Notes: generated by a model not told the origin, from the sequence alone. A stretch of 32,000 nucleotides of DNA from Candidatus Methylomirabilis oxygeniifera (GCA_000091165.1 FP565575.1:570001-602000); one strand, 5' to 3'; shown: positions 5,608 through 32,000, counted from the stretch's first letter. Translations and numbers: made by a program.

Positions 5608-6720
5608 TTGCGGAATGTGCGCGCACACTCGATGGTCTGAAGGACAAGTTGCATATCCTCCGGGACTATCTTTGACGTAGCAGGAAAACAGTCGCGTCTG
5701 GCCGCGATCGAAGAGATGCTCCATTCACAGGAATTCTGGGCCGACACCTCCCGCGCCCGGGAGATCATGAAGGAGCAACGCGCGCTCAAGGATGTGGTCG
5801 ACCAACTGGTAGCCATCGGGGGCGAGCTTGACGATCTGGCGGTCTTGCTCGGACTACTGCGAGAGGAAGAAGACCCGCAGGCTCTGAAAGAGTTGGAAAG
5901 TTCGCTGCGAAGCCTGGAGGGTCAGATTGGCGCGCTCGAGCTGACCACGTTTATGGCGGAAGAATACGACTCGGGCAACGCGATCCTCTCCATCAATCCG
6001 GGCGCCGGCGGCACCGAGTCGCAGGATTGGGCGCAGATGCTGCTGCGAATGTACCTGCGATGGGCGGAGACCGGCAGCTACAAGACCGAAATCATCGACC
6101 TACTTCCTGCGGAGGAGGCCGGGATCAAGAGCGCCACGGTGACGGTATCCGGCAAGTACGCGTATGGTCGCCTGAAGGCTGAGATTGGGGTCCACCGCCT
6201 GGTCCGCATCTCGCCGTTCGATGCCAATCACCGCCGGCACACCTCCTTTGCGTCGGTCTTCGTCTACCCGGAGATCGATGAGACCATCGACGTGGCGATC
6301 GACGACAAGGACCTGCGCATCGACACCTACCGCTCCAGCGGGGCAGGCGGGCAGCATGTCAACGTCACTGACTCAGCAGTTCGGATCACGCACCTGCCGA
6401 CAAACATCGTGGTCTCCTGCCAGAATGAGCGGTCGCAGCACAAGAATAAGGCCATGGCCATGAAGGTCCTGCGCGCCAGGCTGTACGACCACTATCGTCG
6501 GGAGCAGGAGAAGGAAATGGCCAAGCTCGAAGGCGAAAAGAAGGACATTGCGTGGGGCAGCCAAATTCGTTCCTACGTCCTCGCTCCATACCAACTCGTG
6601 AAGGACCATCGGACAGGGCTGGAGACCTCCAATGTCGATAAGGTCCTGGATGGAGAGATCGAGCCGTTCATCGATGCGTTTCTCATGAGAGGCCGAATCT
6701 CGCCCGGCGCTGCGAAGTGA
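5604..6720 (+). CDS. prfB: Peptide chain release factor 2, requiring a programmed +1 frameshift at CTT TGA C (5670-5676)
   Basis: Frame-0 segment ATG 5604 to in-frame TGA 5673-5675 encodes MIAECARTLDGLKDKLHILRDYL. Skipping T5673 joins the frame of ORF 5716-6720 (DVAGKQSRLAAIEEMLHSQEFW...), which carries the RF2-specific SPF and the GGQ (SGAGGQHVN) motifs. The ATG overlaps the lnt stop (ATGA) and has SD AAGGAGGA at 5591-5599. Confidence 0.93.
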
Positions 6721-11956: not shown

Positions 11957-12025
11957 GCGTACAGCGATCAGCGCCGAGATCCCCCCCAACCCCCCTTTGA
12001 TAAAGGGGGGCGCGGGGGGATTTTT
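11957..12025. repeat. Composite repeat: GCNNNCA heptads plus C6/G6 double-hairpin REP-like element (copy A); probably also the secA terminator
   Basis: gcgtaca gcgatca gcgccga (11957-11977), then atccccccc-aa-cccccc-ttt-gat-aaa-gggggg-cgc-gggggg-at followed by ttttt (11979-12025). Confidence 0.8.
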
Positions 12026-24156: not shown

Positions 24157-25380
24157 TCATGTCCGGTGGAGGACGTTGAACAGGGCGGGTGGCGATAAGA
24201 GGGCGTGTGGCGGGAGTAGATCCCCGATGATACCAAGCAGCAGATTCGCAAGCGATTGACGTCGACAGAGAAGCCGCGCGACCGCGTTCGCAACGCGTGG
24301 TCGACGGATGATGGCCTGTAACGCAATACCAAGCCGCCGCCTGCCTCTCACAGCATTGCGCTGATGGTGATCAAACCGCGCAAGGTGAGCCTCGGTCAGA
24401 CCCCCGTCGCCTTCGGCACAGGCGGAGACGATCTCGCTGGCCGCGAGTTGCGCGCCGCAAAGGGCGTGACCTACCCCTTCGCCGGTAAAAGGATCGTAAA
24501 AGCCTGCCGCATCTCCAATTAGCAGCGCGCCGGCCATGGCGCTACGACTCGCTCGAAACGCCAGAGGGCCGAGGCATCGGACCGACCCGCGTCGCACCGT
24601 GTCACGAAGGGCGCTCAGTGCGAGGGGAAACGCCTGCAGCGTGCCGTCGAACAGCTCGTCAAGTTGCCCTTTCCAGCCTTGCACGATCCCCTGATCCACC
24701 ACAATGGCGGCGTTGGTCAGCCATTCACCGATTGAATTCAGGATGCAATACGACCGATCGCCGATCGAGATCAGCCCGTGATCCTGAAGTGTACTGACCC
24801 CCTCATAGTAGGCGACCAGCGCCATCCGATGTAGCGTAGGATGCGGCTGATACAGGCCGAGCCGCCTGGCGACCACTGAGTCTCGTCCGTCCGCTCCCAC
24901 GACGATCCGCCCTCGATACGTCTCCGGGCCCGTCGGCCCGATCCCTGTGACACCGCACACTTGCCCGTTCTCCAAAATCAGATCGGTCACGCGCAACCCT
25001 TCGACGCATCTCGCCCCGAAACCGCGAGCCCATTTCAGCAAGAGGCTGTCAAGGATAGCCCTTGGAATGGAAAGCGCGAACGGGGGCCCCGCGTTGATTC
25101 TGCTGATGGCGGGAAATTCGGCCGTGAAGGTCGTACCATCCGGGGAGATAATCGTCATGCCCAGCAGGCGCCGCGCCCCGGCCGAGCGTACGAGGTCAAG
25201 CAGATTAAGCTGATCGAGAAGTCCGACGGTCCCCGGGCTGAGATAGTCGCCGCAGATCTTCTCGCGAGGGAAGGTCGCCTTGTCGAGCAGCAGCGCGTCA
25301 ATCCCGCGCCGGGCTAAAAGACCGGCTAGGACCGAGCCGGCCGGACCGGCGCCCACAATGATGACCGTGGTCTGTGGCAT
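24157..25380 (-). CDS. FAD-dependent oxidoreductase (geranylgeranyl-reductase / aromatic-ring hydroxylase fold)
   Basis: 407 aa. N-terminal dinucleotide fold VIIVGAGPAGSVLAGLLARRGIDALLLDK, then GADGRDSVVAR and the GDAAGFYDPFTGEG motif. Confidence 0.85.
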   Translation of the reverse strand: MPQTTVIIVGAGPAGSVLAGLLARRGIDALLLDKATFPREKICGDYLSPGTVGLLDQLNLLDLVRSAGARRLLGMTIISPDGTTFTAEFPAISRINAGPPFALSIPRAILDSLLLKWARGFGARCVEGLRVTDLILENGQVCGVTGIGPTGPETYRGRIVVGADGRDSVVARRLGLYQPHPTLHRMALVAYYEGVSTLQDHGLISIGDRSYCILNSIGEWLTNAAIVVDQGIVQGWKGQLDELFDGTLQAFPLALSALRDTVRRGSVRCLGPLAFRASRSAMAGALLIGDAAGFYDPFTGEGVGHALCGAQLAASEIVSACAEGDGGLTEAHLARFDHHQRNAVRGRRRLGIALQAIIRRPRVANAVARLLCRRQSLANLLLGIIGDLLPPHALLSPPALFNVLHRT

Positions 25381-25386
25381 GATGTA

Positions 25387-25559
25387 GCGAATAGCCTTCA
25401 GCGATCAGCCCTCAGCCGTCAGCTTCAAACAAACCCCCCTGACCCCCCTTTCAAAAAAAGGGGGGGATATTACTGAGACGCTTCCTTCCCTCCCCCTTTC
25501 GTAAAGGGGGATTGAGGAGGTTTTCATGCGTTGATCGCTGAAAGCTGATAGCTGTCTTC
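25387..25559. repeat. Composite repeat block: heptad array, two C/G hairpin units and an inverted heptad array
   Basis: [GCNNTCA]x6 at 25387-25428. Hairpin B1 cccccctttcaaaaaaaggggggg lies within 25431-25469. Hairpin B2 ccccctttcgtaaaggggg...ggttttcatgcg lies within 25484-25530. [TGANNGC]x4 at 25532-25559. Together they fill the whole 179-bp spacer between the methyltransferase and FAD genes. Confidence 0.85.
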
Positions 25560-26282
25560 TCAAGTTGCAATCTCTTTGGTGAGGGCGATGCGGAACCAGA
25601 GATGACGGCTCAGTCGCACATCGGTAAGACCGGCTTCGGTCGCCATGCGACGCAACTCCTCTGGTCTGAAACCGCGAAGGACCGACATCGGACCGTCGTG
25701 GCGCGTCAGCCGATTGCCGGATAGCAGCCGTGTAGTTATCGCGGTCAGCAGACAGGCGAGTCGGCTGCGCAGCAGGTCATTGACCAGCAGCCCGCGTCGG
25801 GTTACCCGCGCCATCTCCCGCAGCAGGAGGATTCCTTCCGCCTCCGTCAGGTGGTGAAAGAAGAGAGAGGCGATGACGTAGTCGAAGCTGCGGTCCGGGT
25901 AGGGCAAGGGGGGCACTTGCGCCTGTCGCAGTCGGATCTCCGGGAAGTCGATCGACCATTCGGTTGCAGCCGCCAGAACATGGTCGTTCTGATCCACGGC
26001 TTCAATAGCGACAGGAAATTTGCGCTTCCTGGCCCAACGGCAGATGGCCCTGGGAATATCGGCGCCGCCGGTTGCCATATCCAGAATCGTGAAGGACCTC
26101 GGCGAATGCTGTTCTACCATTCGACCGAGGCATAAGAGTACCGTACGCACACCGCCGAAATATCGGTTCAGTCGCTCCAGGTCGCGCAGATTCTCACGGA
26201 TCTCCTCAGCGGAGTTATCCGAGCGGTCCAGTAGTTCCGCCGCCCCTTGGAGACGAGGGAGGGACAGTCGGGTCGTCACCAT
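25560..26282 (-). CDS. Class I SAM-dependent methyltransferase
   Basis: 240 aa. Motif I context FTILDMATGGADIPRAI and the later FDYVIASLFFHHL. The start overlaps the PKS stop by 7 nt. Confidence 0.8.
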   Translation of the reverse strand: MVTTRLSLPRLQGAAELLDRSDNSAEEIRENLRDLERLNRYFGGVRTVLLCLGRMVEQHSPRSFTILDMATGGADIPRAICRWARKRKFPVAIEAVDQNDHVLAAATEWSIDFPEIRLRQAQVPPLPYPDRSFDYVIASLFFHHLTEAEGILLLREMARVTRRGLLVNDLLRSRLACLLTAITTRLLSGNRLTRHDGPMSVLRGFRPEELRRMATEAGLTDVRLSRHLWFRIALTKEIAT

Positions 26283-27301
26283 CGCAGTAGCGCACCCTCC
26301 GCGCAGAAGCCCGGCCCGAGCGCAATCATCACGCCCAGGTCGCCGGGAAATGCCTGCCCGGATCTGATCACTTCATTGAGAACGAAGAGAACCGTGGCCG
26401 ACGACATATTCCCGAATTGGCGAAGCACCTGCCGGGAGAATTGGAGGTCAGCGTCACCGAGCCCGATCTCGCGTTGCGCCCGTTCGAGGACCCCTCGGCC
26501 GGCGGAGTGCAGGACCCAGAATCGGATATCCTCCTGCTTAAGATGATAGCGATCGAGTATTGCCGCCGCCAGCTCCTTCATCATGGCGCTGCCGATTCCC
26601 CTGATCTCCTTGGACAGCAGGATGCGGGGTCGTCCGCTCGGATAGGTAAACCCCATCAGGTCAAGGTACTCGGAACGAACCAGACTCATGTGGCCCATGA
26701 CCTCAACCCCGGCGCCATCGGATGCCAGGATGGCCGCCGCGGCCCCGTCGGCAAAGATCGCGTTGGCCACGGCGGTTTCGAGGGAATCATCGAGGTAGTA
26801 GGTTGAGGAACAGATCTCCACGGAGACGATCAGCGCCCGATGATCAGGAAAGGCCAGCAGGTGGTTATAGGCCTGCTGCAGCGCAATCATCCCGCTGGCG
26901 CAGCCCATATCTCCCACATGTACCCGTTGAACCCGTTCCTTCATCCTGAATTCCCGGACGAAATAGGCGTCGAGGTTGGGACACAGCCGGCCGGTGCAGG
27001 TGGTGGTCACTACAAAGTCGATCTCCTGAGCGGAGCAGCCGGCCTTGTCCAGGGCGCGCTGGATCGCCTGGCGGCCGATCTCGATGCCTCCTTTGCGGAA
27101 TCTGGCGTTGAGTTCGTCCGTGGTCTCAGTGGGGCGAAAGGTAGGCTTATCCACATACATATGCCGCTGCTCAATGCCGCTGTGGAGGAAAAAGCCCCGC
27201 CGTCGCTCATCGGTATACGATGCGATGGCCAGCAGCTCTTCTTGGGTGAAAGACGTTGTGGGGTTAGCGGTGTCGAGCGCGATAATCCTGGGGTTGGGCA
27301 T
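26276..27301 (-). CDS. Type III polyketide synthase (chalcone/stilbene synthase family)
   Basis: 341 aa. Catalytic triad contexts DMGCASG (Cys), WVLHSAGRG (His) and FGNMSSATV (Asn), with C-terminal ALGPGF. GGAGG SD upstream of the ATG at 27301. Confidence 0.88.
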   Translation of the reverse strand: MPNPRIIALDTANPTTSFTQEELLAIASYTDERRRGFFLHSGIEQRHMYVDKPTFRPTETTDELNARFRKGGIEIGRQAIQRALDKAGCSAQEIDFVVTTTCTGRLCPNLDAYFVREFRMKERVQRVHVGDMGCASGMIALQQAYNHLLAFPDHRALIVSVEICSSTYYLDDSLETAVANAIFADGAAAAILASDGAGVEVMGHMSLVRSEYLDLMGFTYPSGRPRILLSKEIRGIGSAMMKELAAAILDRYHLKQEDIRFWVLHSAGRGVLERAQREIGLGDADLQFSRQVLRQFGNMSSATVLFVLNEVIRSGQAFPGDLGVMIALGPGFCAEGALLRW

Positions 27302-27558
27302 GTGTACGCCTCCTAATGGTTCATTGGTGCCTCATCGTGGAGAGCAGCCAATCAATTCTACTGAGCGTTCGGCTTCGACGTTCCGGTTGGGTTGTGAGAT
27401 CAAGTTGATCCTACAGCGAAGGTGTGCCATAGTTAGTTGAGTAGGCGAAATGACTCTACCGGGTACCATAGACATCACTATATAACTGAGAGCGTGGTTC
27501 GCAACCTATCATTAAACTATGGGATTGACTCCTCAAGCACAAGAAATTTCTTTAACCT

Positions 27559-28452
27559 ATGTTTACCACAAAAACGTATACAAAAGATTTTAAGTATTTT
27601 AAGGAGCAATACGACGAAAGCATGGAGCGCATGTTTGCGGCGGTCAGCGATCTCTACGCCGAATACTGGAACGATTTTTTTCATTTTGCGCTGTTCAAGG
27701 ATGAAGATGAGAGTCGGGAGTCGGCTTTCCACAATACTCACAAGAAATATCTGGAAGCTCTGCGGATAGGCGACGCGCGTCATGTGCTCGAACTGGCTTG
27801 CGGGAGAGGCGGCTTTACGAATGTTCTGGCCGAACATACGTCCGGTGACGTGTTGGGGATCGATATTTCTCGTTCACAACTTTCACATGCCAGGAGATTC
27901 AAGCGGCCGAACTTACGTTTCAGGCACCACGACATCATGAAAGTTGATGAACTCGGAGAAATGTTTGACGCAGTCGTGCTCATGGACGCGGAGTGCTACT
28001 TACCGGATAAACAATTGGCTGTAGAGAAAATCTCGAACGTGATGAACCCAGGAGCTCGCCTTCTTCTCCTCGGATGGTGCAAGCAGGATGGGTTGAACTC
28101 AATTCAGGAAGAACTTGTCTTGCATCCATTTATGAAATACTGGGCCATCCCAAGTCTTGAAACGCCGGACAATTACAGAAAATATTTTGAGCACAACGAT
28201 TTCAACATCATTGAGATGACTGATCTAAATCATCAAGTCAAGAGAAACTGGGAGTTTGGCTATGCGTCAGCGTTGAAGGCCATTAAGACGCTTTCAATCA
28301 AAGACGTTCCGCGCCTCGTCTGGAAAGATATGAGATTGGGGAGCGAGGGGGTCAGACTCATGAAAGAGCAATTTCCGGCCGCTATCTACATCAAGGTCGG
28401 CTACGACGTGGGGTTCCTTCGCTATGTCTACTTCCTGGTCGAGAAGAAATAA
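27559..28452 (+). CDS. Class I SAM-dependent small-molecule methyltransferase, compositionally atypical (low G+C)
   Basis: 297 aa. The N-terminal LYAEYWNDFFHFALF segment resembles the W..N.HFG.W box of RebM/gamma-tocopherol-MT-like enzymes. Motif I is VLELACGRGG. A hand count gives ~48% G+C against >60% in the neighbours. Confidence 0.75.
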   Translation: MFTTKTYTKDFKYFKEQYDESMERMFAAVSDLYAEYWNDFFHFALFKDEDESRESAFHNTHKKYLEALRIGDARHVLELACGRGGFTNVLAEHTSGDVLGIDISRSQLSHARRFKRPNLRFRHHDIMKVDELGEMFDAVVLMDAECYLPDKQLAVEKISNVMNPGARLLLLGWCKQDGLNSIQEELVLHPFMKYWAIPSLETPDNYRKYFEHNDFNIIEMTDLNHQVKRNWEFGYASALKAIKTLSIKDVPRLVWKDMRLGSEGVRLMKEQFPAAIYIKVGYDVGFLRYVYFLVEKK

Positions 28453-28476
28453 AACTCCTTTTCTCGTACATTTCCC

Positions 28477-28505
28477 TTGACAAGAATTACGTCATATTTG
28501 AATAT
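28477..28505 (+). promoter_or_regulatory. Possible promoter of the gcv operon
   Basis: TTGACA (28477-28482), 17-nt spacer, GAATAT (28500-28505). About 145 nt upstream of gcvT. Confidence 0.35.
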
Positions 28506-28649
28506 CGCCCCGTATCTGAGGTGAGGTTCCTCTTTTTATTTCCCGCCGATAACACCCATACACGCTAGATCGACGATGCCACATGACAGTGACCGACCTT
28601 TGCCGGCCTCGCGCGTGCTTGACATCGCCACCGATAGTGGGGGTAGCAG

Positions 28650-29762: not shown

Positions 29763-29826
29763 CCGATAGTTCATAGATCAAATCCCCCTCGACCCCCCTT
29801 TATTAAAGGGGGGAACGGGGGGATTT
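29762..29826. repeat. Degenerate heptads plus C6/G6 double-hairpin REP-like element (copy C)
   Basis: gccgata gttcata gatcaaa, then aaatccccc-tcga-cccccc-ttt-att-aaa-gggggg-aac-gggggg-attt (29780-29826). Lies between gcvT and gcvH. Confidence 0.8.
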
Positions 29827-30255: not shown

Positions 30256-31604
30256 TGCAGTACATCCCGAATACGGAGGCCGACTGTCGCGCGATGCTGG
30301 ATGCCATCGGCGTCCGGTCAAGCGAGGAGCTGTTTGCCGACATCCCCTCCAAGCTCAAGCTCAAGCGAGGACTGAACCTGGCGCCGCCACTGTCCGAGAC
30401 CGGACTGCGACGGCATATGAAGGAGTTGGCCGGCCGGAACGCGGACGTAGAACAATACCCCTCCTTTTTGGGGGCAGGCGCCTACAATCACTTTATCCCT
30501 GCTGCTGTCTCCCACCTGGTGTTCAGATCGGAGTTCTACACCGCGTATACGCCCTACCAGCCGGAGCTGTCGCAGGGGACACTCCAGGCGATCTACGAGT
30601 ACCAGACGCTGATCTGCCAGCTTACCGGCATGGAGGTAGCCAACGCGTCGATGTATGACGGTTCCAGCGCCCTGGCCGAGGCGGTGCTGATGGCTCACAG
30701 GATCAACGGCCGCCAAGAAGTGGTGCTGCCCATGGCCGTGCACCCGGAGTACCGGACGGTATGCCGCACCTACGTGAGCAAGCTTGGCATCGATCTGCAC
30801 GAGGCGCCCTATACGGACGAGGGTACGACCGACCTGAAACAGGTGAAGGCGGCGCTGTCGGATCGCACCTGCGCCGTTGTGGTCCAGAGCCCGAACTTCT
30901 TCGGAGTTCTGGAGTCGCTCGATGAGCTTGCGGAGGCCGCTCGCCGCGTCGGGGCGCTCCTGATCGTGGTTGTAGCCGAGCCGGTCTCGTTCGGCATCGT
31001 CCGATCCCCGGGCGAGTGCGGGGCGGACATCGTTGTGGGGGAGGGTCAGGCGTTCGGAAATCCTCTGAACTTCGGCGGTCCCTATCTTGGTTTCTTCGCG
31101 TCGAAACAGGCCTATGTCCGCAGTATGCCGGGTCGTTTAGTCGGCCGGACCGAGGATAAGGTCGGGAGGCCGGGTTACGTCCTGACACTGTCTACCCGAG
31201 AACAACATATTAGGCGGGAGAAGGCGACGTCCAACATCTGCACGAACGAAGGGTTGTGCGCCCTGGCTGCGACCGTTCACCTGTCGCTATTGGGGCGAGC
31301 CGGGCTCAGGGAGCTGGCCCTGCTGAACCTCCGCAAGACGGCCTATGCCAAAGACGCGATCTCTCAACTCCGCGATTACGAGCTTCCGTTTGCGGGTCCT
31401 ACCTTCAATGAGTTTGTGGTGCGGGTGAAAAGGCGGACCCCGGCCCAGGTGAATCGCGCGCTGCTGGCCAAAGGCATTATCGGCGGTGTGGAGCTGGGCC
31501 GGTTCTACCCGGAGCTTTCGGATTGCCTGCTCCTCTGCGTGACGGAGCAAAACAGTCGCGAGGAGATCGACGCGCTCTGTAAGGCAATGGGAGGTAAGCG
31601 ATGA
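30255..31604 (+). CDS. gcvPA: Glycine dehydrogenase (decarboxylating) subunit 1
   Basis: 449 aa. FLGAGAYNHFIPA and YTPYQPELSQGTLQAIYEYQT motifs. TGATG overlap with the gcvH stop. Confidence 0.95.
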   Translation: MQYIPNTEADCRAMLDAIGVRSSEELFADIPSKLKLKRGLNLAPPLSETGLRRHMKELAGRNADVEQYPSFLGAGAYNHFIPAAVSHLVFRSEFYTAYTPYQPELSQGTLQAIYEYQTLICQLTGMEVANASMYDGSSALAEAVLMAHRINGRQEVVLPMAVHPEYRTVCRTYVSKLGIDLHEAPYTDEGTTDLKQVKAALSDRTCAVVVQSPNFFGVLESLDELAEAARRVGALLIVVVAEPVSFGIVRSPGECGADIVVGEGQAFGNPLNFGGPYLGFFASKQAYVRSMPGRLVGRTEDKVGRPGYVLTLSTREQHIRREKATSNICTNEGLCALAATVHLSLLGRAGLRELALLNLRKTAYAKDAISQLRDYELPFAGPTFNEFVVRVKRRTPAQVNRALLAKGIIGGVELGRFYPELSDCLLLCVTEQNSREEIDALCKAMGGKR

Positions 31605-32000
31605 CGGATGAGGTGCGAGGCAAATCCCCCCTCGCCCCCCTTTACGAAAGGGGGGATGGGGGGTTTTCATGCGGGCCAAGTGCCACAGGCGAGAACGAGG
31701 AGGTCGTTGCCCAGGGACTCGCCTTCAATGAGCCGCTCCTGTTTGATCAGGGATCACGGGGGCGGGTGGGCTGTACACTTCCTGAGTGCGACGTTCCGGA
31801 GCTGAAACCGGAGCGGCTGCTTCCCAGAAAGCTTCTCCGGCACGACATCCCCGGTTTCCCTGAACTCTCCGAGGTCGAGGTGGTCCGGCATTTTACGCGG
31901 CTATCACAATGGAATTACGGAGTCGATACGGGCTTCTACCCATTGGGCTCCTGCACCATGAAGTACAACCCGAAGATCAATGAGGAGGTGTGGCGGCTGC
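31601..32000 (+). CDS. gcvPB: Glycine dehydrogenase (decarboxylating) subunit 2, 5' part (runs off the window); the N-terminus appears to include a translated REP element
   Basis: The frame is open from ATG 31601 to the window end. GGGAGG SD 6 nt upstream, and ATGA overlap with the gcvPA stop. It encodes ...EPLLFDQGSRGRVG...LPELSEVEVVRHFTRLSQWNYGVDTGFYPLGSCTMKYNPKINE, typical of GcvPB. The ORF is not in the supplied track because it has no stop in the window. Confidence 0.85.
   Translation, partial: MTDEVRGKSPLAPLYERGDGGFSCGPSATGENEEVVAQGLAFNEPLLFDQGSRGRVGCTLPECDVPELKPERLLPRKLLRHDIPGFPELSEVEVVRHFTRLSQWNYGVDTGFYPLGSCTMKYNPKINEEVWRL
31622..31667. repeat. C6/G6 double-hairpin REP-like element (copy D), inside the gcvPB 5' coding region
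   Basis: aaatcccccc-tcg-cccccc-ttt-acg-aaa-gggggg-at-gggggg-tttt. It shares the right flank ggttttcatgcg with copy B2 (25519-25530). Confidence 0.85.

Follow-up and report, generated by a model that had tools for sequence, protein, structure and literature searches.

Operons in which a type III polyketide synthase (PKS) stands beside a methyltransferase and a flavoprotein are known and widely distributed. In srsABC of Streptomyces griseus and pkqABC (the pks10 operon) of Mycobacterium smegmatis, the latter described as homologous to srs, the genes follow one another on one strand in the order PKS, methyltransferase, flavoprotein. The products are methylated alkylresorcinols that are oxidised to alkylquinones, and in M. 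smegmatis these are electron carriers of oxygen-poor biofilms. In picocyanobacteria, hidABC gives hierridin B, which is methylated and hydroxylated (PMC8086630). In the homologous mtr-fdo-t3pks operon of planctomycetes, the PKS produces C15/C17 alkylresorcinols, which gain one methyl on the ring when mtr and fdo are co-expressed (PMC10896814). Here, a locus with the same kinds of genes is described from a 32,000-nucleotide stretch of the genome of Candidatus Methylomirabilis oxygeniifera (GCA_000091165.1 FP565575.1:570001-602000), hereafter the window. Three genes lie on the minus strand: a type III PKS (26276-27301; 341 aa), a class I S-adenosylmethionine (SAM) methyltransferase termed MT1 (25560-26282; 240 aa) and a flavoprotein, an FAD-dependent oxidoreductase (24157-25380; 407 aa). 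A second class I SAM methyltransferase, MT2 (27559-28452; 297 aa), lies on the plus strand. An initial annotation of the window had given the same four coordinates, with which the open reading frame (ORF) calls agreed exactly, and the same enzyme classes, which Pfam and NCBIfam models supported. We slightly favour the reading that the four genes work in the manner of the hierridin and planctomycete operons, with a methylated and hydroxylated phenolic lipid or quinone as the product.

By sequence comparison, the closest known system appears to be hidABC together with the homologous planctomycete operon. Like the window, these have a type III PKS, a class I methyltransferase of the PRK06202 family and a flavoprotein of the geranylgeranyl reductase (GGR) superfamily with the motifs FPRxKxCG and GDAxGFxxPxTGEG. 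Some cyanobacterial hid-like clusters have the PKS > methyltransferase > oxidoreductase order of the window and some have a second methyltransferase (PMC8086630), and some planctomycete operons include a lipid/isoprenoid-binding protein (PMC10896814). The usual hid and planctomycete order, found also in Paludisphaera, is however methyltransferase, flavoprotein, PKS, and the extra MT2 of the window is of a different methyltransferase family from those of the hid-like systems. The window PKS is about 30% identical to the hid-like PKSs, carries a Phe where these carry a Trp, and falls in a different clade, being set apart from the Paludisphaera enzyme by an 89% split in a tree that did not include HidC. 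The window flavoprotein is 26% identical to that of Paludisphaera and reads YxIxNP where hid-like proteins read GY(V/A)GL. MT1 scores under the PRK06202 cut-off. Each member of the window trio has a homolog in the hid-like and planctomycete operon. The window shares two of the three enzyme families with the hid and planctomycete version, and the PKS is the divergent part.

The locus had initially been likened to srsABC and to the mycobacterial polyketide-quinone locus. The likeness holds for gene order and logic and fails for the methyltransferase family and for a diagnostic Trp of the PKS. Homologs of srsB are annotated as isoprenylcysteine carboxyl methyltransferases (ICMT) (PMC6669644), that is, membrane proteins of a different fold, whereas MT1 is a soluble class I enzyme for which no ICMT match was found in Pfam or NCBIfam. 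SrsA, PKS10 and PKS11 carry the Trp, whereas the window PKS has Phe218. With SrsB-type methyltransferases annotated as ICMT and MT1 of class I, the resemblance is an analogy of logic and not of family. An ICMT-linked two-gene arrangement was present on plasmids of Stenotrophomonas and Sphingomonas. It had been suggested initially that a redox-active alkylresorcinol or quinone lipid made by this gene set would be uncharacterised. This applies only to the product of this clade; the type of cluster is known from cyanobacteria and planctomycetes, and standard genome mining would already flag it as T3PKS. What is new is the Phe-type PKS lineage, which is uncharacterised, and its product rather than the architecture, and the sequence gives no reason to postulate new chemistry. 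Within the searchable library, no paper pairs 'type III polyketide synthase' with Methylomirabilis, and among the hits listed by a broader search none deals with the cluster.

The PKS, MT1 and flavoprotein genes form a conserved trio. GTDB species genomes were scanned for loci with a PKS at least 52% identical to that of the window. The whole trio in the order PKS, MT1, flavoprotein was found at 18 of these 24 loci, MT1 only at three and neither partner at three. At the three loci with MT1 only, the contig or the similarity ends after MT1, and counting these the number becomes 21/24. The trio loci span NC10, Rokubacteria and the Bryobacterales (Acidobacteriota), and the same order was seen in every related contig examined directly (L001-L011). 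Among relatives at this PKS identity, the neighbourhood was kept wherever the sequence around the PKS reached far enough, so that the initially proposed check of neighbourhood conservation is passed. As the trio is conserved across the Methylomirabilota and in the Bryobacterales, it is a real functional unit. The 7-nt overlap between the PKS stop and the MT1 start, already noted initially, was recovered as the shared ATGGTGA, and through it MT1 is translationally coupled to the PKS. An overlap of 4-7 nt is kept in the NC10-type loci L001, L002 and L006-L011; two Rokubacteria-type loci show no overlap and have gaps of 8-22 nt.

The product of 26276-27301 is a true type III PKS. Its Pfam scores were 76 bits for PF08392 (FAE1_CUT1_RppA), 62 bits for PF02797 and 45 bits for PF00195, with a cut-off of 27 bits each, so that both Chal_sti_synt domains (N and C) were above threshold. 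The best PDB match was Pks11 of Mycobacterium tuberculosis (4JAO; 2.9e-41, residues 41-341), which is about 30% identical and has the same Cys-His-Asn triad and C-terminal ...GPGF...LLRW, but belongs to the other major clade. The motifs DMGCASG, WVLHSAGRG and FGNMSSATV, singled out initially, are all found in the translation, and the sequence context of the triad is chalcone synthase-like. Across 240 aligned homologs, Cys134 was conserved in 235, His265 in all 240 and Asn298 in 239. Homologs at 60-94% identity were all from NC10, Candidatus Methylomirabilis or Rokubacteria, without an exact copy of the window sequence among them, and beyond the phylum the identity fell to 45% or less in an exhaustive representative search. 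Of the Phe-type PKS relatives retrieved here, none could be matched to a characterised enzyme. All four proteins of the cluster align over their full length with homologs, so none of the four genes is a pseudogene.

The top model for MT1 was NF004851 (PRK06202), with 157 bits over the full length (residues 10-237 on 9-230 of 237) and thus below the cut-off of 243; its Pfam matches were the class I families Methyltransf_11/25. The same NF004851 model gave 232 bits for the PKS-adjacent methyltransferase of a Paludisphaera plasmid operon and 318 bits for that of a Deinococcus plasmid trio, to which MT1 is 28-34% identical over the full length. MT1 and the PKS-adjacent methyltransferases of Planctomycetota and Deinococcota belong to one NCBIfam family. 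Methyltransferases similar to MT1 also adjoin type III PKSs in Sphingobium, Novosphingobium and Paenibacillus.

For the flavoprotein, the top model was TIGR02032 of the geranylgeranyl reductase superfamily (131.9 bits against a cut-off of 158.8), followed by MenJ, QhpG and CmlS at about 82-84 bits and with a match also to the DGGGPL reductase model. TIGR02032 was likewise the top model for the operon flavoproteins of Paludisphaera (116 bits) and Sphingobium (82 bits). The protein carries the initially quoted VIIVGAGPAGS and GDAAGFYDPFTGEG as well as FPREKICGD. In a full-length alignment, FPRxKxCG and GDAxGFxDPxTGEG were common to the flavoproteins of the window, Rokubacteria, Paludisphaera and a Chloroflexia operon of the order flavoprotein, methyltransferase, PKS (L087), and only the conserved Cys-Gly of these motifs was retained in Sphingobium. 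The nearest PDB structures were the variant-B halogenases Mpy16, PltA, ChlB4, CndH and CmlS (1e-22 to 2e-16).

A halogenase role was considered on account of these PDB matches and of the chlorination step to hierridin C, which has no assigned enzyme, and was rejected. In the 5BUK and 8ZOP alignments, WVWQIP and WLWYIP align to YCILNS, so the WxWxIP motif is absent. The catalytic Lys is also replaced, PKKFG and RKYGG aligning to ARRLLG, and the relatives are likewise without this Lys. As a separate observation, trio operons carry two unrelated flavoprotein types at one position. That of Deinococcus sp. QL22 (L012, on a plasmid) is a UbiH/PHBH-type hydroxylase, whereas L017, L018 and the window have the GGR-like type, which is found in the trio operons of Paludisphaera, Sphingobium, Chloroflexia and Methylomirabilota.

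The favoured pathway may be depicted as follows. The PKS, with Cys134, His265 and Asn298, would be primed by an acyl thioester, with a fatty acyl-CoA or acyl-ACP as the likeliest starter, would extend this starter with malonyl-CoA and would cyclise the chain to a phenolic or a pyrone head group. MT1 would methylate the ring, and the GGR-like flavoprotein, in the predicted role of a ring hydroxylase, would oxidise or hydroxylate it to a hydroquinone or quinone-type lipid. MT2, as a later horizontal addition, might add a further methyl. A gene for a YceI (PF04264) lipid/polyisoprenoid-binding protein lies at the junction of MT1 and the flavoprotein gene in many sister lineages (L009-L011, L029, L032, L052, L109-L113 and L187) and is absent from the window; another is found near the trio of Azospirillum soli (L107, 8141-8722). 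These YceI genes argue for a lipidic product.

Several observations weigh against this reading. The first concerns position 218 of the PKS. The Trp that decides between aldol and lactone cyclisation (ArsB Trp281) is reported to be conserved in FtpA, SrsA, PKS10 and PKS11 (PMC5916927; PMC9927152), and a Tyr at this site is reported to limit MMAR_2470 to triketide pyrones (PMC5916927). Phe218 of the window PKS aligns with Trp230 of Pks11 (position counted from the PDB alignment), equivalent to ArsB Trp281 and MMAR_2474 Trp230. Thus, where resorcinol formers carry Trp, the window PKS carries Phe, as do 118 of the 119 in-phylum homologs; the equivalent is Trp also in the trio-operon PKSs of Deinococcus, Sphingobium, Paludisphaera and A. 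soli. In a neighbour-joining tree (339 columns, 200 bootstraps), in which SrsA, ArsB/C, BpsA, PkqA and HidC were represented by Pks11 (sequence from the PDB alignment) and by annotated operons on plasmids as stand-ins, the trio PKSs of Methylomirabilota and Bryobacterales formed a 100% clade nested in a 99% Phe-type clade. The Phe-type clade is large, with members from Methylomirabilota, Acidobacteriota, Bacteroidota, Gemmatimonadota and Ignavibacteria. It groups with the Tyr-type enzymes (DpgA, Chloroflexia, anammox, Thermodesulfovibrionales). A split of 89% sets the window PKS apart from the Trp-type enzymes, namely Pks11 and the four operon PKSs just named, and DpgA is the weakly supported sister of the Phe-type clade (62% bootstrap). 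The exhaustive representative search, with its drop in identity outside the phylum, agrees with this placement. Further, both partner genes are mostly missing beside PKSs that are 30-47% identical to that of the window (from Terriglobia, Bacteroidota, Gemmatimonadales, anammox bacteria and others), and around those at 40-47% there are no tailoring genes. The activity of the flavoprotein cannot be read from its sequence, as all NCBIfam scores were below the cut-offs, and a GGR-like reductase role is possible. The planctomycete study could show no role for the oxidoreductase (PMC10896814). Most members of the MT2 family, eight of which were noted individually, are not PKS-linked; one of these, on the Methylomirabilis-like 34-kb contig L111, stands without a PKS.

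Because the PKS falls outside the sampled Trp-type clade and has Phe at position 218, the alkylresorcinol considered initially is an assumption only. The product of the cluster cannot be predicted, in agreement with the initial view that it is not readable from the sequence.

We also noticed a pairing among the Tyr-type PKS homologs, which are 31-33% identical to the window PKS, in six anammox Planctomycetota loci and two Thermodesulfovibrionales loci (L099 and L100). Most of these PKS genes are preceded on the same strand by an ORF of about 475 aa. It contains a CxxxCxxC motif (CHFKCVYC) and resembles a B12-binding radical SAM enzyme. The pairing is recurrent and stands without a methyltransferase or flavoprotein partner.

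The part of the four-gene reading that has the strongest competitor is the inclusion of MT2. The protein matched Methyltransf_25/31/11/23 and CMAS in Pfam and is RebM/CMAS/PEAMT-like (also gamma-TMT-like). The GC content of its gene is 0.47 in the window and 0.42-0.47 across Methylomirabilis genomes, against 0.61 for the PKS. The family is 60-70% identical across Proteobacteria, Bacteroidia, and one metagenome-assembled genome (MAG) each of the candidate phyla radiation (CPR) and of archaea. This low GC content, together with the high identity across unrelated phyla, points to horizontal acquisition of MT2. As to the family itself, the identity is 58-69% between NC10, a deltaproteobacterial MAG, a Doudnabacteria (CPR) MAG, a Woesearchaeota MAG, A. 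soli and Bacteroidia (P0304, P0306, P0324, P0375 and P0387), an unusually strong conservation combined with a patchy distribution. In a metagenome scan, only Methylomirabilis-like contigs had MT2 homologs linked to a PKS, and on plasmids no homolog was found.

The divergent position of MT2, initially listed as one of the two peculiarities of the locus, is real and yet not distinctive, as it results from an inversion specific to this lineage; in sister genomes the gene runs in the same direction as the PKS. MT2 lies co-directionally 51-109 bp upstream of the PKS in L006-L008 (PKS 94% identical) and in L001 (89%), so that the closest relatives have a four-gene co-directional cluster beside a divergent gcv operon. 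Positions 27541-28452 of the window align in reverse to L006 and L001 with both flanks collinear, which identifies a local inversion. The divergent arrangement was reproduced with identical gaps in L102-L104 and L108 at about 91% nucleotide identity, and since these assemblies are independent it is not an assembly error; L115 is a further divergent variant. Neither inverted repeats nor homologous junctions that could account for the inversion were found on comparing 27321-28630 of the window with its relatives, and the junctions were unalignable between the arrangement types. MT2 is co-directional also in L109-L113, a range that includes L111 with its missing PKS link.

MT2 may be an independently acquired stand-alone gene in the gap between the PKS and gcvT, leaving only the trio as the functional unit, and we regard this as a realistic, if less probable, alternative. 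The foreign composition of the gene fits this, and so does the family, whose 60-70% identity across unrelated phyla comes usually without a PKS link. No conserved partner gene of the MT2 family homologs was found; MT2 is missing from most Methylomirabilota trio loci and in the window is transcribed away from the PKS. On the other side, MT2 stands close upstream of the PKS on the same strand in sister genomes and is still adjacent to it after the inversion, thus adjoining it in both orientations. In A. soli, a spacer of 121 bp separates a 60%-identical MT2 homolog from a divergently oriented PKS-MT-FAD trio, and second methyltransferases are known in hid-like clusters. On these grounds MT2 probably belongs to the pathway.

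The tree and the profile scores bear on a second alternative, that the PKS, like DpgA, PhlD or THNS, uses malonyl-CoA alone and forms a small aromatic polyketide that is not a lipid and is then tailored to a methylated hydroxy-aromatic or benzoquinone. We hold this to be unlikely. The top NCBIfam model for the PKS was indeed DpgA (NF042429; full length, 238 bits), its best plasmid tblastn matches were DpgA at 32% identity, the Phe-type PKSs are separated in the tree from the Trp-type and group with the Tyr-type enzymes and DpgA, DpgA itself having a non-Trp aromatic (Tyr) at the diagnostic site, and the protein is short at 341 aa. The score is, however, far under the cut-off of 425 bits and the sister grouping weak, no enoyl-CoA hydratase or dioxygenase gene of the dpgB/C/D kind adjoins the window PKS, its partner enzymes are the ones found in alkylresorcinol operons, and the YceI genes of the sister operons point to a hydrophobic product. 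That the window PKS is DpgA itself, to which it is 32-33% identical, was rejected on the score and on the neighbours, which are MT1, the flavoprotein and MT2, with no dpgBCD or nonribosomal peptide synthetase context.

Of similarly low probability is a third alternative, in which the flavoprotein is a GGR-type reductase acting on a double bond or a quinone, and the end product is a methylated alkylresorcinol or pyrone and not a quinone. The ranking of TIGR02032 as best model, the matches to MenJ and the DGGGPL reductase and the GGR-type Cys motif PREKICGD are in its favour. At the position of the GGR-family motif YxWxFP the flavoprotein reads YCILNS, with the Cys motif present. Against this alternative, the TIGR02032 score is below its cut-off, and the QhpG model, a monooxygenase, scores equal to MenJ. 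In the PDB search, halogenases and monooxygenases that activate O2 matched better (1e-22 to 1e-16) than GGR did (6e-10), and the homologous hid pathway requires the introduction of a para-hydroxyl.

That 26276-27301 encodes a FabH-type KAS III starting fatty-acid synthesis, an outcome named initially as refuting, can be dismissed, since, despite Pfam matches to ACP_syn_III and ACP_syn_III_C and one database source in which a homolog bears the name of the 3-oxoacyl-ACP synthase III C-terminal domain, the FabH models of NCBIfam reached only 70-86 bits against cut-offs of 249-292, the 60 of 133 PDB matches listed were either type III PKSs or members of their superfamily from plants, the 3-ketoacyl-CoA synthases, with no FabH among them, and the triad context is that of chalcone synthases.

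In NC10 bacteria, the oxidation of methane is coupled to the reduction of nitrite, and unusual lipids are used to trace these organisms in sediments. Across NC10 and Rokubacteria, the cluster lies beside housekeeping genes and shows the conservation of a core gene set, from which a role as redox carrier or in protection might be suggested. Speculatively, and with considerable doubt on our part, Methylomirabilota and some Acidobacteriota might make so-far-undetected methylated polyketide hydroquinone or quinone lipids by a Phe-type PKS lineage unrelated to the known alkylresorcinol synthases, and in the 'intra-aerobic' methane oxidisers that depend on nitrite these might act as an additional redox carrier of the membrane or protect the cell from O2 and NO. 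If so, such lipids could be a diagnostic biomarker of these organisms, and a conserved redox-active phenolic lipid pathway would bear both on how the respiratory chain tolerates internal O2 and NO and on the choice of biomarkers. Through residue 218 of the Phe-type PKSs, the Trp/Gly/Tyr cyclisation rule can be tested directly. In any case the cluster is well conserved and, as a candidate source of a new phenolic lipid or quinone, can be put to the test in a phylum of biogeochemical importance.

The other initially listed peculiarity was a 179-bp repeat block between MT1 and the flavoprotein gene (25381-25559). The repeats are present, as two inverted copies of a nested hairpin with the core AAATCCCCCC..CCCCCCTTTnnnAAAGGGGGG..GGGGGGATTT, contained within a further 22-nt inverted repeat, and the block folds with -85.2 kcal/mol (z = -6.3). 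The core, at 25444-25510 within the block, recurs at 11991-12009 (secA/thiolase), 29794-29812 (gcvT/gcvH) and 31636-31654 (after gcvPA), all intergenic, with nine strand-wise matches in the window against 0.04 expected. As the core recurs at other intergenic sites, the block is a genome-wide interspersed element resembling repetitive extragenic palindromic (REP) sequences. It is not specific to the operon, being found also inside the bona fide gcv operon, and as a feature of this locus it is a local accident. The spacer is not conserved in L001 or L003, where the junction has a gap of about 110 bp, and in L005 (Rokubacteria) the two genes overlap. No intrinsic terminator and no T-run were found in the block, which says little either way on co-transcription. 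The REP-like elements have the core CCCCCCTTTnnnAAAGGGGGG between C6/G6 and AAAT/ATTT arms at no fewer than four intergenic sites, two of which are within the gcv operon, and the ORF at 31287-31679 on the minus strand ('...PPFRKGGRGG...') is a mere translation of one REP copy.

The intergenic region between the PKS and MT2 (27302-27558, 257 bp) is AT-rich as first described, with a GC content of 0.463 against 0.58 for the window, and divergent. It contains a sigma70-like site facing the PKS, TTGCGA-16-TATAGT at 27504-27477 on the minus strand, although such sites are no more numerous in the region than expected by chance. Housekeeping genes flank the cluster, with a CCA-adding enzyme, a cysE-like gene and glgC to one side and gcvT-gcvH-gcvPA to the other; rpsB…secA lies farther upstream. 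An Rfam scan of the spacers, at the gathering threshold and also at E ≤ 1, gave no riboswitch or known RNA; a glycine riboswitch would have been expected upstream of gcvT. Elsewhere in the window, the prfB (RF2) ORF at 5716-6720 is without its N-terminal codons, and a CTTTGAC at 5670-5676, 40 nt upstream of the first in-frame start, fits the classic programmed +1 frameshift site.

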